Below are positions 6,873 through 19,777 of a stretch of 19,777 nt of DNA, in pieces. The position numbers and the translations under genes are program-made. The notes below the pieces were generated by a model, which saw only the letters and a list, made by a program, of their open reading frames with translations, had not been told where the DNA came from and searched no databases. Numbering within the stretch: position 1 is the stretch's first letter; each line of letters begins with the position of its first letter. Source of the stretch: a virus. Lineage: Duplodnaviria > Heunggongvirae > Uroviricota > Caudoviricetes. The stretch lies in IMG/VR virus record IMGVR_UViG_2850808358_000001; one strand, written 5' to 3'.

Positions 6873-8298
6873 TTTTTATGCGCCGCCCCATAGCATCGAG
6901 GCAGAGCAGGCGGTGATTGGTGGATTGCTTCTGGATGATGACAGCAGTGAGCGCGTCCAGAAGGTTCTTGCGATGCTGAAGCCTGACTCATTTTACAGCC
7001 GGCCACACAAAATCCTTTTCGAAGAAATAACCAGAATGCACCGGGAGCAAAAGCCAGTAGATGGCCTGACGCTTTTCGATGAACTGGAGCGTAAATCGTT
7101 AACGGCGTCTGTTGGCGGTTTTGCTTATATCGCTGAGATCGCAAAGAACACGCCAAGCGCCGCAAACATCGTTGCCTATGCAATGCAGGTTCGCGAAACC
7201 GCAATGGAACGCTACGCCATCAACCGCATGACTGAAGCGACGGAATTGCTCTATTCCCGCAACGGAATGACTGCAACGCAGAAGTACGAAGCTATTCAGG
7301 CGATTTTCACGCAACTGACAGACCATGCAAAAACCGGATCACGTCGCGGCCTTCGCTCATTTGGTGAGGTCATGGAAGACTGGGTTAGCGACCTTGAGAA
7401 GCGTTTTGACCCGTCAGGCGAACAACGAGGAATGAGCACAGGGATCCCATCGCTGGACAGGATGCTGTCACCGAAAGGTCTGGTGAAAGGCTCTCTGTTT
7501 GTCATTGGCGCTCGCCCTAAGATGGGGAAAACGACGCTATACAGCCAGATGGCAATCAACTGCGCAGTGCATGAGAAAAAGCCCGCTCTGATGTTCAGCC
7601 TTGAAATGCCAGGTGATCAGATACTGGAAAAACTGGTAGGGCAGAAGTCTGGTGTTAACCCGAATATTTTTTACCTTCCGGCGACAAATGACGCCGATGA
7701 CGGCTATCAGGGTGATTACGATGGTGACTTCAACAGGGCGATCGAAACAGCCAATCGCTTGAGTGAAATCGACCTGCTTTACATCGACGACACGCCGGGA
7801 TTATCTCTGGCTCAAATCGTCAGCGAAAGCCGTCGAATCAAGCGAGAAAAAGGATGTGTTGGCATGATTCTGGTCGATTACCTGACACTAATGACCGCTG
7901 AAAAGGCCGATCGCAACGACCTTGCCTACGGCATGATCACCAAAGGACTGAAGAACCTTGCCAAAGAGCTTGATTGCGTTGTTGTGCTTCTGACGCAGCT
8001 TAACCGCGCACTGGAAAGCCGAACCAATAAACGCCCATTACCAAGTGACTCACGAGATACAGGGCAGATTGAACAGGATTGCGATTATTGGGTGGGGATC
8101 CATCGTGAAGGTGCTTTTGATGACAGTGTTCCACCTGGTGAAACCGAACTAATCCTTCGTCTCAATCGTCATGGCAATACCGGCACGGTGTATTGCATTC
8201 AGGCAAATGGAGCTATTTATGACACAGACCAACAGTCTGCTGAAATGCGCCGCCGTGAACGCGAGGAACCGCAGTCCAAGAAGAAAGGAGGATTCTGA
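6862..8298 (+). CDS. replicative DNA helicase (DnaB-like, P22 gene 12 type)
   Basis: N-terminal DnaB-like domain (PHSIEAEQAVIGGLLLD), Walker A-like GARPKMGKT, Walker B-like ILVDYL; ATG 6862 with GAGGG SD. Confidence 0.85.
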   Translation: MTDNFYAPPHSIEAEQAVIGGLLLDDDSSERVQKVLAMLKPDSFYSRPHKILFEEITRMHREQKPVDGLTLFDELERKSLTASVGGFAYIAEIAKNTPSAANIVAYAMQVRETAMERYAINRMTEATELLYSRNGMTATQKYEAIQAIFTQLTDHAKTGSRRGLRSFGEVMEDWVSDLEKRFDPSGEQRGMSTGIPSLDRMLSPKGLVKGSLFVIGARPKMGKTTLYSQMAINCAVHEKKPALMFSLEMPGDQILEKLVGQKSGVNPNIFYLPATNDADDGYQGDYDGDFNRAIETANRLSEIDLLYIDDTPGLSLAQIVSESRRIKREKGCVGMILVDYLTLMTAEKADRNDLAYGMITKGLKNLAKELDCVVVLLTQLNRALESRTNKRPLPSDSRDTGQIEQDCDYWVGIHREGAFDDSVPPGETELILRLNRHGNTGTVYCIQANGAIYDTDQQSAEMRRREREEPQSKKKGGF

Positions 8299-8378
8299 TG
8301 ACCATCTACATCACTGAGCTAATAACAGGCCTGCTGGTAATCGCAGGCCTTTTTATTTGGGGGAGAGGGAAGTCATGA
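8298..8378 (+). CDS. putative small hydrophobic peptide (26 aa)
   Basis: Not in the ORF track; ATG overlaps the helicase stop (TGATG) with AAGGAGGA SD 7 nt upstream; translation [26 protein letters not shown]; stop overlaps the ninB ATG (ATGA). Confidence 0.3.
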   Translation: MTIYITELITGLLVIAGLFIWGRGKS

Positions 8379-8815
8379 AAAAACTAACCTTTGAAATTCG
8401 ATCTCCAGCACATCAGCAAAACGCTATTCACGCGGTACAGCAAATTCTTCCAGACCCAACCAAACCAATCGTAGTAACCATTCAGGAACGCAACCGCAGC
8501 TTAGACCAGAATCGAAAGCTTTGGGCTTGCCTTGGTGACGTCTCTCGTCAGGTTGAATGGCATGGTCGCTGGCTGGATGCAGAAAGCTGGAAGTGTGTGT
8601 TTACCGCGGCATTAAAGCAGCAGGACGTTGTTCCTAACCTTGCCGGGAATGGCTTTGTGGTAATAGGCCAGTCAACCAGCAGGATGCGTGTAAGCGAATT
8701 TGCGGAGTTATTAGAGCTTATACAGGCATTCGGTACAGAGCGTGGCGTTAAGTGGTCAGACGAAGCGCGACTGGCTCTGGAGTGGAAAGCGCGATGGGGA
8801 GATCGGGCTGCATGA
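8375..8815 (+). CDS. ninB: NinB-like recombination protein
   Basis: [24 protein letters not shown]...; position after the replication genes matches lambdoid ninB; assignment from memory. Confidence 0.8.
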
Positions 8816-9501
8816 CTATCAAATCAAATACGCCAGCACACGACAAGGACTGCTGGCAAACGCCACTTTGGCTTTTTGATGCGCTGGATATTGAGTTTGG
8901 ATTCTGGCTGGATTCGGCAGCGAGCGACAAAAATGCTCTGTGCGCTCACTGGCTAACTGAGGCCGACGACGCGCTCAATTCTGAGTGGGTAAGCCACGGT
9001 GCAATCTGGAATAACCCACCGTACAGCAATATCAGGCCGTGGGTGGAAAAAGCCGCTGAGCAGTGTATACAACAGCGACAGACGGTAGTTATGCTTGTGC
9101 CAGAGGATATGTCAGTCGGATGGTTCAGCAAGGCTCTGGAGAGTGTTGACGAAGTTCGCATCATCACTGATGGACGGATTAATTTTATCGAACCATCGAC
9201 AGGGCTGGAGAAAAAGGGAAACAGTAAAGGCTCAATGCTGCTGATTTGGCGACCGTTCATCAGTCCCCGGCGAATGTTTACTACCGTATCCAAAGCGGCA
9301 TTGATGGCGATCGGGCAGGGCGGCATGAGGCGACAGCGACGAAGTATTACCGACATAATCTGTGAAAACTGCAAATACCTTCCAACGAAACGCTCCAGAA
9401 ATAAACGCAAGCCAATCCCAAAAGAATCTGACGTAAAAACCTTCAACTACACGGCTCACCTGTGGGATATCCGGTGGCTAAGACATCGTGCGAGGAAATG
9501 A
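8812..9501 (+). CDS. phage DNA N6-adenine methyltransferase (Dam-like) with an unusual basic C-terminal extension
   Basis: NPPYS motif (DPPY-type motif IV) and CWQTP...F.LD.AA pattern of phage Dam family; ATG 8812 overlaps the ninB stop; last ~55 aa are Lys/Arg-rich and atypical. Confidence 0.75.
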
Positions 9502-9542
9502 CTATTTATCCGGTGCGCCGCCAGAATGACGGCGCGGTGTGG

Positions 9543-9851
9543 TTAAACGAAGCGGATCTGGAGTTTTTTTCCAGTAGCGCGGGCGAATTTTTTTAGTGTG
9601 GCAAATGATGGGCCGCTGATACCTGATGCGAGATTACTTTCCATTCTGGTGATCGCGGTCGCTTTTGTTCCCATTCGCTCGGCAACTTCAGCCTGAGTTA
9701 AGCCAGCTTCTTTGCGTGCTGCCAGCATTTCATCAAGCAGTGCGAATTCGTCAGCGATAGCGTCGTATTCTGCTTTAAAAGCCGGGTCTTCCATCCATTT
9801 GGCTGCCATTTCGTCGTGTGTCATGGTGGGGAGAGTGCGTTTACCAGTCAT
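9543..9851 (-). CDS. HTH (XRE-family) antitoxin, HigA-like
   Basis: 102-aa ORF with HTH (GLTQAEVAERMGTKATAITRME); its ATG overlaps the toxin stop by 11 nt (ATGACTGGTAA); toxin-first gene order is typical of HigBA-type modules. Confidence 0.75.
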   Translation of the reverse strand: MTGKRTLPTMTHDEMAAKWMEDPAFKAEYDAIADEFALLDEMLAARKEAGLTQAEVAERMGTKATAITRMESNLASGISGPSFATLKKFARATGKKLQIRFV

Positions 9852-10170
9852 GCTTAACCTCCTTCATTCTGGTTTCAGCTTTCTTGCGTTCGGCTGGCGG
9901 TGTTTTCTGCGTTTTCTTTACAAAACTATGCAGCATGATGATGCGTTTCCCTGTCAGAGTGCAGTAAAAAACACGCGCGATCCCATCGTTGCCTTTAATT
10001 CTGAGTTCGAAAAGTCCGTCACCAAAGGCGCTGGTGTGAGGTTCTCCGAGATTGCTGCCATATATCTTCATACGTTCAACGAGATGTTGGTATCGGGCAC
10101 GCATACTCAATGGAAGCCGATCGACTTCCAGCCTTACATCTTCACTGTAGTATTCGATAGTGTAGTTCAT
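9841..10170 (-). CDS. RelE/HigB-superfamily toxin (Gp49-like)
   Basis: 109-aa ORF from MNYTIEYYSEDVRLEVDRLP...; size, toxin-first order and overlap with an HTH partner fit a type II toxin. The ORF track extends it to 10251 via an upstream start that I reject. Confidence 0.75.
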   Translation of the reverse strand: MNYTIEYYSEDVRLEVDRLPLSMRARYQHLVERMKIYGSNLGEPHTSAFGDGLFELRIKGNDGIARVFYCTLTGKRIIMLHSFVKKTQKTPPAERKKAETRMKEVKHDW

Positions 10171-10180
10171 AGGTATCAAC

Positions 10181-10196
10181 ATAACAAAATCGTTAT
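10181..10196. promoter_or_regulatory. palindromic putative operator upstream of the toxin gene
   Basis: ATAAC-AAAATC-GTTAT perfect inverted repeat 11..26 bp upstream of the toxin ATG, overlapping a candidate -10 region on the - strand. Confidence 0.4.
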
Positions 10197-10292
10197 ATGC
10201 ATTCAAGGCCTGTAGTTGACGACAACACATATCCGGGGCTATATTCCTCATACGCCAGCAAAATCTGGCGTCGGGATTGAGACCCCGGATGT

Positions 10293-10749
10293 TTACGGAG
10301 CGATATGAGACGCGCCCGCGTCTTTTTTCATATCGTTTGCACAGTCACATTCGCGATTTATGGTGGGCTGTGTGGGGGAGCCGAAACCGATAACCATTTC
10401 TTTGTTGAAGAGACAAAGCGAGCAGGCCAGTCCGATCGCGGTCCAACTGAGCCCCATTTCACGGGATTTTTCGGTAATACCATTCTCCCGATTGCTCCAG
10501 CGTTCCATAATCCAGTGGATCCACTCCTCCTGCTTAGGGAAGAGTAAAAACGGAATGGTCACCGGCAGGCCATAATCAATATTACGCGGGTCCGTTGTCA
10601 TGCCCCAGCCGATAATGAACTGAGCCGGGTTGGTACGGTAAAACTGTTTTAGTGCAGGCAATATTTCAGGATTCTGGCGAATGCGCTGTAGGCGTTCCAT
10701 CCGCCATTCAAAAACCATCTGGTAATCAGGATGTTTAAAATCGAAGGGT
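10293..10749 (-). pseudogene. large terminase subunit, N-terminal ATPase portion only; split by IS600 and 3'-truncated
   Basis: Frame ...[15 protein letters not shown]...[20 protein letters not shown]... resembles the N-terminal ATPase region of P22-like TerL; continuous in frame with the 6 codons at 12014..12030 across IS600 copy 2; stops after ~150 aa where a full TerL would be ~450-500 aa. Confidence 0.65.
10308..10328 (+). terminator. intrinsic terminator-like hairpin with T5 tract on the + strand
   Basis: AGACGCG..CGCGTCT stem followed by TTTTT; lies inside the 3' end of the truncated terL reading frame, suggesting foreign junction sequence. Confidence 0.45.
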
Positions 10750-10813
10750 TGAGGTAGCCTGAGTTTAACGGACACTCCTTCCTGAAATAGAATGGCATCA
10801 GAAGGAGCTAATA

Positions 10814-11116
10814 ATGAGCAGAAAAACCCAACGTTACTCTAAAGAGTTCAAAGCCGAAGCTGTCAGAACGGTTCTTGAAAATCAACTTTCGATCAGTGAA
10901 GGCGCTTCCCGATTATCCCTTCCTGAAGGCACTTTAGGACAATGGGTTACCGCCGCCAGAAAAGGGCTCGGTACTCCTGGTTCCCGCACGGTGGCTGAAC
11001 TGGAATCTGAAATTCTGCAACTGCGTAAGGCGTTAAATGAAGCTCGCCTTGAGCGAGATATATTAAAAAAAGCAACAGCGTATTTTGCACAGGAGTCGCT
11101 GAAAAATACGCGTTAA
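10814..11116 (+). CDS. IS3-family transposase OrfA
   Basis: Identical protein to copy 1 OrfA. Confidence 0.9.
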
Positions 11117-11151
11117 TCGAACAATGGCGACAACAATTTCCCATTGAAGCG

Positions 11152-11970
11152 ATGTGTCAGGTATTTGGTGTATCCAGGAGCGGTTATTACAACTGGGTAC
11201 AGCATGAACCCTCAGACAGAAAACAAAGTGATGAGCGGCTAAAACTGGAGATTAAGGTGGCACATATCCGCACTCGCGAAACATATGGAACCCGGCGGCT
11301 CCAGACGGAGCTGGCAGAGAATGGCATCATCGTTGGTCGTGACCGACTGGCACGTCTTCGTAAGGAGCTAAGGCTACGCTGTAAGCAGAAACGCAAGTTC
11401 AGAGCGACTACGAACCCGAACCACAATCTGCCAGTTGCGCCAAATCTGCTGAACCAGACGTTCGCTCCTACAGCACCAAATCAGGTCTGGGTGGCGGACC
11501 TGACGTATGTTGCCACACAGGAGGGATGGTTGTACCTCGCTGGCATCAAAGATGTTTATACGTGCGAAATTGTCGGCTACGCCATGGGAGAGCGCATGAC
11601 AAAAGAGCTGACAGGTAAAGCCCTGTTTATGGCGCTCAGGAGCCAGCGCCCACCTGCCGGGCTAATCCACCACTCTGATCGAGGTTCACAGTACTGCGCA
11701 TACGATTACCGGGTCATACAGGAGCAGTTTGGTCTGAAAACATCAATGTCGCGTAAAGGTAACTGTTACGACAACGCTCCGATGGAAAGCTTCTGGGGAA
11801 CGCTGAAAAATGAGAGCCTGAGCCACTATCGTTTTAATAACCGGGATGAAGCCATCTCAGTAATACGGGAATACATTGAGATTTTCTACAATCGTCAGCG
11901 TCGTCACTCTCGTCTGGGGAATATCTCCCCGGCAGCCTTCAGGGAAAAATATCATCAGATGGCTGCTTAA
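11152..11970 (+). CDS. IS3-family transposase OrfB (DDE domain)
   Basis: Identical to copy 1 OrfB except R14W (c to t at 11194). Confidence 0.9.
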   Translation: MCQVFGVSRSGYYNWVQHEPSDRKQSDERLKLEIKVAHIRTRETYGTRRLQTELAENGIIVGRDRLARLRKELRLRCKQKRKFRATTNPNHNLPVAPNLLNQTFAPTAPNQVWVADLTYVATQEGWLYLAGIKDVYTCEIVGYAMGERMTKELTGKALFMALRSQRPPAGLIHHSDRGSQYCAYDYRVIQEQFGLKTSMSRKGNCYDNAPMESFWGTLKNESLSHYRFNNRDEAISVIREYIEIFYNRQRRHSRLGNISPAAFREKYHQMAA

Positions 11971-12013
11971 AAAAAGAACAAATGGTAGTGTCCGCTATTG
12001 CCAGTACACCTCA

Positions 12014-14937: not shown

Positions 14938-15013
14938 TGGTGCTGGTTAACGGACTTGAACCGCTACCCATTCGCTTACAAGGCGACTGCTCTACCATTA
15001 GAGCTAAACCAGC
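14938..15013 (-). tRNA. phage-encoded tRNA, anticodon read as UGU (tRNA-Thr), CCA encoded
   Basis: Manual fold of the minus strand: acceptor GCUGGUU/AACCAGC, D-arm GCUC/GAGC with GG loop, anticodon loop CUUGUAA, T-arm with UUCAAGU loop, 3' ACCA; one non-WC pair at the top of the anticodon stem. Confidence 0.6.
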
Positions 15014-15018
15014 ATATT

Positions 15019-15093
15019 TGGCGGGACAGCGTGGACTCGAACCACGATAAGAAGGTTAACAGCCTTCCGTAATGACCTTTATACGACTGACCC
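15019..15093 (-). tRNA. phage-encoded tRNA, anticodon read as GUU (tRNA-Asn), CCA encoded; may be degenerate
   Basis: Manual fold: T-arm CGUGG-UUCGAGU-CCACG perfect, anticodon stem GAAGG/CCUUC perfect with loop CUGUUAA; acceptor and D stems each carry one mismatch. Confidence 0.5.
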
Positions 15094-17604: not shown

Positions 17605-17976
17605 TCAGTAGTGATGTAGTGAAGGAGGTAATTCTTTGTTCTTAAGTCTTACCCATGCAGAAAGATTCGTTGGTCCGTCTGGCTCATTAATATCAACATC
17701 TCGTGTGTGATTGATTAAAACGTCTCTCGCCATTCCGATAACATACGAGAACTCATGACCGTAGTCGTGGCATCTGCCGGAATAGTTAGACTGAATTTGT
17801 CTTAGCGCCGGATACAGTTCGCGGAATAATGCCTGTGAGCGGTTGGCATAATCCCACAACCATACCAGACTGTTTGCATCTTTTGCAGAAAGCTCGCTGG
17901 TTTTCTTCTCGTGATGACCTGCGCTTTTCGAAGTCTGGCTGAAATAGCAGTCTTCCAGTTTTTCGAACACGTCCAT
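17605..17976 (-). CDS. hypothetical protein, or C-terminal part of a frameshifted ORF6N-domain gene
   Basis: 123-aa [17 protein letters not shown]... overlapping by ~175 nt the other open frame that continues from the ORF6N domain. Confidence 0.4.
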
Positions 17977-18281
17977 GCCTGATCGGTTTCGAGCATCTTC
18001 GCGTGACGGGCTGCGCCTCGTTCTGTCCAGAGGATGAGCGAGCGGGCATTTTTACCAACTAACCCGATTGTTTCGGGTCTGTTCTTAAACTCGCGTAATT
18101 CGTTTTTTTCAATTTTAAAGTAATGCTTTCCTACCACGAATCGCATCGTGTTGTTCAGAAAATTATCAGAAATGTTTTTGATTTTTGTTCCGTATAACTG
18201 CGCCAGAAGTTCAGTTGTAATAACGGGGATCTGGTTGTGGGTGATTGCAGGAAGAGTGTCGACAGAAATTTGAGTGAGCAT
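17802..18281 (-). CDS. ORF6N-domain (antirepressor-like) protein
   Basis: ...[15 protein letters not shown]...NISDNFLNN...[14 protein letters not shown]...[24 protein letters not shown] fits the ORF6N-type domain pattern; ATG 18281 with GGAG SD; the ORF track extends the frame into IS600 because the IS end is open in that frame. Confidence 0.55.
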
Positions 18282-18409
18282 AACGATAACTCCGTACATT
18301 TGGTCATTATCGCCACCTTCTGGTCTCAATAATCTGGTGGCGAGCTGAGGTAGCCTGAGTTTAACGGACACTCCTTCCTGAAATAGAATGGCATCAGAAG
18401 GAGCTAATA

Positions 18410-18712
18410 ATGAGCAGAAAAACCCAACGTTACTCTAAAGAGTTCAAAGCCGAAGCTGTCAGAACGGTTCTTGAAAATCAACTTTCGATCAGTGAAGGCG
18501 CTTCCCGATTATCCCTTCCTGAAGGCACTTTAGGACAATGGGTTACCGCCGCCAGAAAAGGGCTCGGTACTCCTGGTTCCCGCACGGTGGCTGAACTGGA
18601 ATCTGAAATTCTGCAACTGCGTAAGGCGTTAAATGAAGCTCGCCTTGAGCGAGATATATTAAAAAAAGCAACAGCGTATTTTGCACAGGAGTCGCTGAAA
18701 AATACGCGTTAA
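18410..18712 (+). CDS. IS3-family transposase OrfA
   Basis: Identical protein to copies 1 and 2. Confidence 0.9.
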   Translation: MSRKTQRYSKEFKAEAVRTVLENQLSISEGASRLSLPEGTLGQWVTAARKGLGTPGSRTVAELESEILQLRKALNEARLERDILKKATAYFAQESLKNTR

Positions 18713-18747
18713 TCGAACAATGGCGACAACAATTTCCCATTGAAGCG

Positions 18748-19564
18748 ATGTGTCAGGTATTTGGTGTATCCAGGAGCGGTTATTACAACCGGGTACAGCA
18801 TGAACCCTCAGACAGAAAACAAAGTGATGAGCGGCTAAAACTGGAGATTAAGGTGGCACATATCCGCACTCGCGAAACATATGGAACCCGGCGGCTCCAG
18901 ACGGAGCTGGCAGAGAATGGCATCATCGTTGGTCGTGACCGACTGGCACGTCTTCGTAAGGAGCTAAGGCTACGCTGTAAGCAGAAACGCAAGTTCAGAG
19001 CGACTACGAACCCGAACCACAATCTGCCAGTTGCGCCAAATCTGCTGAACCAGACGTTCGCTCCTACAGCACCAAATCAGGTCTGGGTGGCGGACCTGAC
19101 GTATGTTGCCACACAGGAGGGATGGTTGTACCTCGCTGGCATCAAAGATGTTTATACGTGCGAAATTGTCGGCTACGCCATGGGAGAGCGCATGACAAAA
19201 GAGCTGACAGGTAAAGCTCTGTTTATGGCGCTCAGGAGCCAGCGCCCACCTGCCGGGCTAATCCACCACTCTGATCGAGGTTCACAGTACTGCGCATACG
19301 ATTACCGGGTCATACAGGAGCAGTTTGGTCTGAAAACATCAATGTCGCGTAAAGGTAACTGTTACGACAACGCTCCGATGGAAAGCTTCTGGGAACGCTG
19401 AAAAATGAGAGCCTGAGCCACTATCGTTTTAATAACCGGGATGAAGCCATCTCAGTAATACGGGAATACATTGAGATTTTCTACAATCGTCAGCGTCGTC
19501 ACTCTCGTCTGGGGAATATCTCCCCGGCAGCCTTCAGGGAAAAATATCATCAGATGGCTGCTTA
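18748..19564 (+). pseudogene. IS3-family transposase OrfB inactivated by frameshift
   Basis: G-run is GGG at 19391..19393 where copies 1 and 2 have GGGG; the ORF stops prematurely at 19401 (217 aa instead of 272). Confidence 0.8.
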
Positions 19565-19608
19565 AAAAAAGAACAAATGGTAGTGTCCGCTATTGCCAGT
19601 ACACCTCA

Positions 19609-19777
19609 CCCTGACGTATACCCACAGACGACCCGTTTTCGTCTTTCCGTTCCCCGGGGCCAGTACTTTCACCGGAGTGTCATCTGCGTGCACCTTTCCT
19701 GCCTCCAGAACATAGTCATTCAGCGCTATATACAGAGGACGGAGTTTGTCTGCCATTTCTGATACCCAGCGCACCAT
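19609..19777 (-). pseudogene. IS66-family transposase fragment, interrupted by IS600 copy 3 and running off the window
   Basis: Frame ...HADDTPVKVLAPGNGKTKTGRLWVYVR ends exactly at the IS600 terminus; motif typical of IS66-family transposases. Confidence 0.6.

Follow-up and report, generated by a model that had tools for sequence, protein, structure and literature searches.

An isrK small-RNA gene, apparently intact, beside a probable inversion junction in a decaying lambdoid prophage

The window (the whole 19,777-nt stretch of DNA analysed here) very probably carries an intact isrK small-RNA gene with its own promoter and intrinsic terminator, located in the nin region of a decaying lambdoid prophage that bears an inversion junction at 10376..10386 (Table 1). 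The initial annotation had interpreted the nested inverted repeats of this region, together with a terminator, as a possible recombination site or mobile-element remnant at the place where the 3' portion of terL was lost. The seeming recombination scar instead appears to be a small RNA of prophages that has been curated and studied by experiment and that standard annotation of genomes does not label, and this identity shifts the real breakpoint by about 50 nt.

Table 1. Positions of the features described in the text. Positions are those of the window unless a reference locus is named.
Feature	Position	Strand	Basis or remark
HTH (HigA-like) antitoxin gene	9543..9851	-	Pfam HTH_3, E = 3e-11; annotation
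Gp49/RelE-family toxin gene	9841..10170	-	Pfam PF05973, E = 7e-26; PGAP annotation of identical locus
PisrK, sigma-70-like promoter	10216..10245	+	-35 TTGACG 10216-10221, 18-nt spacer, -10 TATATT 10240-10245
Outer repeat, left arm ATCCGGGG	10231..10238	+	inside PisrK spacer, upstream of IsrK 5' end
isrK small-RNA gene, 77 nt	10252..10328	+	Rfam RF01394, MFE fold, homologue pairing
IsrK hairpin 1	10252-10271	+	ACGCCAG/CTGGCGT, 10252-10258/10265-10271, loop CAAAAT
IsrK hairpin 2	10272-10287	+	carries b1 word GATTGAGACC at 10275-10284
Outer repeat, right arm CCCCGGAT	10283..10290	+	within IsrK; 10283-10287 is the 3' strand of hairpin 2
IsrK terminator hairpin and U-run	about 10307-10328	+	G+C-rich stem 10307-10324, then T-run
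First 31 nt of C4/STnc1160-type RNA gene ('orf45' region, ATG 10360)	10356..10386	+	identical to L001 3957-3987
Recombination junction, 11-nt microhomology GGGAGCCGAAA	10376..10386		four-way alignment, BLAST
terL fragment, residues 6-129 of 540-aa TerL	10376..10748	-	DNA and BLASTP identity
IS600 copy in terL, between codons 5 and 6	10750..12013	+	self-BLAST
First five terL codons, then terS (Pfam Terminase_2)	from 12014	-	Pfam for terS
C4/ant remnant	18322..18347	-	last 15 nt of C4 18347-18333; b2-like TATTGAGACC 18331-18322, 9/10 identical to IsrK b1
Third IS600 copy	18346..19608	+	BLAST, alignment to RMDEC465
Block matching RMDEC465 L012 1888-3987	8298-10386	+	BLAST
Block matching RMDEC465 L012 10732-10360	10376-10748	-	BLAST
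Blocks matching RMDEC465 L012 10361-4027	12014-18347	-	BLAST

Membership in the isrK family was established by an Rfam scan of the whole window, in which 10252..10328 on the + strand matched the full length of the model (positions 1-77 of 77) with 70.6 bits and E = 1.3e-13, the gathering score being 50; a single copy of the element was found in the window. When IsrK was folded from 10252, both the MFE and the centroid structures gave the three hairpins of the model. The nested inverted repeats described by the initial annotation are present, and the inner hairpin has one more pair than had been reported. In pair counts over ten homologues, pairing was 100% for helix 1, 88% for helix 2 and, in the MAFFT register, 57% for the terminator helix, in which two pairs were changed on both sides. 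A terminator scan of 9300..10900 found one terminator-like site, the stem at 10307 followed by a T-run on the + strand. It overlaps the last codons of the truncated terL frame, as had been noted, and the description of it as a wrong-strand terminator holds only relative to terL: it is IsrK's own and points in the same direction as the adjoining ninB, dam and ninE genes, whose sense strand is the + strand.

Upstream of isrK, a consensus scan identified the promoter PisrK, which agrees with the consensus at 10 of 12 positions and whose -10 element stops 6 nt short of 10252. All ten homologous loci, Gifsy-1 among them, share TTGAC and TATATT without change. Transcription is predicted to start at about 10252, and a +1 at this position agrees with the published Gifsy-1 numbering of C18, G28 and G31 (PMC4825925). 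From these motifs, IsrK would be expected to be expressed in the present strain. Of 5,426 complete E. coli genomes, 778 (about 14%) carry the isrK family, and an isrK annotation was absent from every matching E. coli record among the matches listed.

The arms of the outer repeat, ATCCGGGG and CCCCGGAT, match at 8 of 8 positions and are separated by 44 nt. A single perfect inverted repeat of 8 nt occurred in 19% of shuffles of the 351-nt region, and the window contains 1.9 of them per kb on average, so that such a repeat by itself was rejected as significant. The ensemble of repeats is far beyond chance, given the end-to-end isrK match (E = 1e-13) and the conservation in ten prophage loci. The two outer arms could pair in 96% of the cells of the ten-homologue alignment, and the changes were one-sided only. 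The outer repeat was rejected as a helix of the small RNA, since no compensatory change was seen and every shuffle equalled or beat it. For an RNA begun upstream of PisrK, folding of the 10225-10292 region predicted one long hairpin that uses the outer stem (-47 kcal/mol, z = -5.5); it buries the b1 word of hairpin 2 and forms only if the start precedes PisrK. The outer stem may therefore be relevant to read-through transcripts, or it may be a mere by-product of two independently conserved segments.

The DNA on both sides of isrK locates the breakpoint. Positions 8298..10386 are continuous lambdoid nin-region DNA with 99% identity to a prophage of E. coli RMDEC465, rising to 99.7% over 9400..10386 and 100% over 10216..10340, which spans the promoter and isrK. 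Megablast likewise divided the region into two blocks, the lambdoid nin region at 9400..10386 and terL matches that start only at 10376. The 11-nt sequence GGGAGCCGAAA is common to the nin/C4 block and the terL block, and homology switches there. As judged from these alignments, the true breakpoint is 10376..10386, about 46-56 nt to the right of the stretch 10231..10330 that the initial annotation had singled out, and the loss of the terL 3' part does not fall within 10171..10330 as had been proposed.

The expectation that terL homology would be missing from 10231..10330 was borne out. BLASTP identity to intact TerL is continuous to '...GFGS' (residue 129, position 10376) and is then lost. The terL part is 98% identical at the DNA level to terL of phage vB_EcoM-606R2; no Pfam family was assigned to the 151-aa terL fragment, and it was identified through its DNA and BLASTP identity to annotated TerL proteins. 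The - strand frame (10293..10775) stays open to the stop at 10293; its final 27 codons are not terL. This odd tail arises because the frame runs antisense to the C4 fragment at 10356..10386 and to the 3' half of isrK.

The break lies within a C4/STnc1160-type antisense RNA gene, in the loop of its first internal hairpin. In RMDEC465, a full-length C4 antisense RNA (Rfam RF01695, 75.9 bits) lies 27 nt after isrK, its positions 1-31 correspond to L001 3957-3987, and the sequence past isrK runs on into the antirepressor gene. In the window, the C4 gene is cut at about model position 31 and Rfam scans gave no C4 match even at E <= 10; the antirepressor gene lies 8 kb away, inverted and behind IS600. 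The antirepressor gene also appears to be split in the window, where an ORF6N ORF (17802-18281) overlaps a P22_AR_C ORF (17605-17976) on the - strand. The RMDEC465 antirepressor is a single 225-aa protein, and the split gene is probably a frameshift pseudogene.

The module was compared among ten intact relatives, namely the loci of RMDEC465, P27, Min27, Stx2 II, phi330, PhiR5_2, PhiR12_2, phiSTEC1589, vB_Apl-pPE4 and Salmonella Gifsy-1. All ten showed the order isrK, C4, antirepressor gene, with C4 about 25 nt downstream of isrK and C4 scores of 67-77 bits. The 10-mer in the loop of hairpin 2 (b1) recurs as b2, 2-4 nt after C4, in 10 of 10 loci, and b', a 7-nt complement of the b1 word, is present at about C4 position 57, again in every locus. 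The b1 word is of five types among the ten loci (GAGAC, GGCGT, AGCAC, GGAAC and TGCAC), which suggests distinct immunity or anti-immunity specificities, as with P1 versus P7. The b1/b'/b2 pattern agrees with the c4 paradigm of P1 and P7. The three-way covariation of b1, b' and b2 also agrees with the G28/C162 and G31/C159 pairs of mutations described in Gifsy-1 (PMC4825925), and the same columns are involved when +1 is placed at 10252. Energies of whole-molecule duplexes, of IsrK with C4 and of C4 with the antirepressor leader, were no better than shuffled controls and were dropped in favor of comparison at the word level. A local scan of the window with the c4-a1b1 model (RF03163) gave 45.3 bits at 10239..10291, below the gathering score of 46.7; the element of RMDEC465, identical to that of the window, also scored 45.3 bits, and seven of the nine relatives scanned were above the threshold (46.9-50.6 bits). 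The window itself keeps b1 intact, has lost b' by deletion, and retains only a b2-like word on the - strand. One further observation concerns the Actinobacillus phage vB_Apl-pPE4 (PP818812.1; recorded host Actinobacillus pleuropneumoniae), whose isrK-C4 module is 95.5% identical to that of the window; the host label is odd for such enterobacterial lambdoid DNA.

The arrangement of the blocks to the right of the breakpoint is most readily explained by an inversion, between 11-bp inverted repeats, of the segment ant-Q-lysis-terS-terL', with IS600 damage afterwards; this would be the simplest history. In RMDEC465 L012, GGGAGCCGAAA occurs once forward in C4 (3977-3987) and once reverse-complemented in terL (10722-10732), 6.7 kb apart. 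The inversion would have been mediated by the inverted microhomology that the C4 gene shares with terL; IS600 would later have entered terL and eliminated the reciprocal junction, leaving IsrK complete with neither its cis partner nor its target. This order of events is the one that the present arrangement suggests. At the reciprocal junction, TTTCGGCTCCC would be expected to adjoin the remainder of terL. The third IS600 copy sits at this place and abuts about position 72 of C4; 39 nt of C4 are missing there, including the b' loop GTCTCAA. The C4/b2 remnant that abuts this copy lies ahead of the antirepressor ATG at 18281. GGG is found on both sides of the IS600 copy in terL.

Self-BLAST showed that the three IS600 copies (1-1200, 10750-12013 and 18346-19608) share at least 99.8% identity and have the same orientation; the name 'IS3-like element IS600' was taken from the annotation of matching records. 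To the right of the third copy, 19609-19777 belongs to a transposase gene of ISSfl3 (IS66-like), and phage DNA is present on one side only. The three IS600 copies and ISSfl3 point to an IS-rich genome of Shigella type. A protein look-up found the chimeric ORF in one finished chromosome only, of 5.1 Mb (GCA_002950035.1). None of 5,426 complete E. coli genomes has the nin/terL join, and exact-match searches with a 39-nt or a 23-nt pattern found the junction in none of the GTDB species representatives.

A toxin-antitoxin cassette separates ninE from PisrK; the cassette and PisrK are divergently transcribed. In P27, Min27 and Stx2 II, which have no cassette, homology with the window is confined to the DNA rightward of about 10230, which places the cassette boundary inside the PisrK spacer. 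Two other features of the neighborhood were noted. At 8752-9501 (+), the source assembly calls a 229-aa protein that fuses the domains of Dam methyltransferase and NinE; in RMDEC465 two overlapping genes occupy this place, and the single call could be a frameshift fusion. Two tRNA genes are present at 14941-15093 (-) between Q and the holin gene, and RMDEC465 annotates tRNA-Asn and tRNA-Thr in the matching Q-holin region.

The reading of 10171..10330 as foreign DNA at a junction, whether a recombination site or a small mobile-element remnant, where the 3' part of terL was lost, draws on the missing terL homology, the IS600-rich neighborhood and the perfect 8-nt inverted repeat. That repeat, however, is of a length to be expected in about a fifth of shuffled sequences, and the breakpoint lies outside the stretch. 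The stretch is collinear with the toxin-antitoxin cassette and ninE of an undisrupted prophage and identical to it or nearly so; it is the native continuation of the nin region, 99-100% identical through 10386. Stx phages likewise have this element between ninE and ant, as does Gifsy-1, and no rearrangement has taken place there; its repeats form stems in a small RNA that is known and has a curated model, and they are older than the rearrangement. We therefore regard an origin as foreign DNA as extremely improbable. An IS or MITE remnant was specifically rejected, as undisrupted prophages show no break between the element and its flanks and IS600 begins only at 10750. HigA-type antitoxins commonly bind palindromes, and the palindromes might be taken instead for operators of the HTH antitoxin at a divergent toxin-antitoxin promoter, with a terminator that insulates the cassette and with no small RNA made. 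Because the toxin gene begins at 10170 on the - strand, the promoter and operator that serve it should lie within about 10171-10260 and overlap PisrK. Yet the hairpins, promoter and terminator are kept in P27, Min27, Stx2 II, phi330, PhiR12_2 and Gifsy-1, none of which has a toxin-antitoxin cassette annotated there, homology with the cassette-less phages begins at about 10230, and an IsrK transcript has already been reported for Gifsy-1 (PMC4825925). This makes a purely operator role very unlikely.

The join between the nin region and terL could also be an assembly chimera, or a union of two prophages, in place of an inversion within one. The junction comes from one assembly only, the identity to RMDEC465 varies by block from 96% to 99%, and the reciprocal junction is missing; owing to this last point, an origin from two prophages or a more complex IS-mediated path is possible. 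We nevertheless consider an origin other than inversion within one prophage rather unlikely: the record is a 5.1-Mb finished chromosome, both sides of the junction match one RMDEC465 prophage in inversion order, and the inverted 11-nt pair in this collinear relative is the expected trace of short-homology recombination.

The known system closest in outline is Gifsy-1. Some transcripts from its PisrK pass the IsrK terminator into orf45-anrP, and the resulting mRNA is translationally silent (Hershko-Shalev et al. 2016, PMC4825925). Short IsrK acts in trans: by pairing with the C4/orf45 segment downstream, it activates translation of the antirepressor, which leads to antQ expression and prophage induction (PMC4825925). 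That IsrK is expressed, Hfq-associated and trans-activating is known for Gifsy-1 only; the same study called IsrK a structural homologue of P4 SeqA and likened STnc1160 to CI RNA (PMC4825925). The window resembles Gifsy-1 in the full-length covariance-model match, the three hairpins and the invariant promoter hexamers and, by way of the intact relatives, in the position of isrK upstream of C4/STnc1160 ('orf45') and the antirepressor gene. In contrast, its hairpin-2 loop word is GAGAC, that of Gifsy-1 is GGCGT, and the pairing specificity differs accordingly. The window also has a toxin-antitoxin cassette directly upstream, and the module follows ninE in the window and in Stx phages but Q in Gifsy-1. 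Since the partner is cut after 31 nt, the cis read-through mRNA cannot be made in the window.

The immI c4 system of P1 and P7 (a1b1 - c4 - a2b2 - icd/ant; RF01695, RF03163) is also similar. The relatives have an a1b1-like element, C4 and a repeated target word before the antirepressor gene, and b1 equals b2 and the complement of b'. Unlike in P1 and P7, the a1b1 element has its own terminator here and, by the Gifsy-1 result, gives rise to a small RNA of its own whose role is activating instead of repressing (PMC4825925). In the window, moreover, the c4-a1b1 element is just below its gathering score and the C4 gene is broken. The rearrangement resembles the illegitimate inversions and IS-driven decay of Shigella-type genomes, with an 11-bp inverted microhomology, truncated or frameshifted phage genes, and three IS600 copies and one ISSfl3 within 20 kb; compared with such decay nothing is unusual except that the breakpoint lies in a C4 hairpin loop.

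The present IsrK might retain some activity in trans. It is conceivable, though we think it rather doubtful, that either the orphan GAGAC-type IsrK has been kept as a trans decoy for C4 RNAs of co-resident prophages that share its specificity, or the outer stem switches between an IsrK initiated at PisrK, the active decoy, and an inactive read-through RNA of the early operon. If true, the orphan IsrK decoy would be a cross-prophage anti-immunity RNA. Taken together, the region is a known RNA family beside ordinary prophage rearrangement and decay. The covariation of b1, b' and b2 among IsrK, C4 and the antirepressor leader, with at least five specificity types, supports the published pairing model and introduces no new principle. 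In this prophage the antirepressor switch has been dismantled, and one of its RNA components, isrK, appears to survive intact but orphaned.
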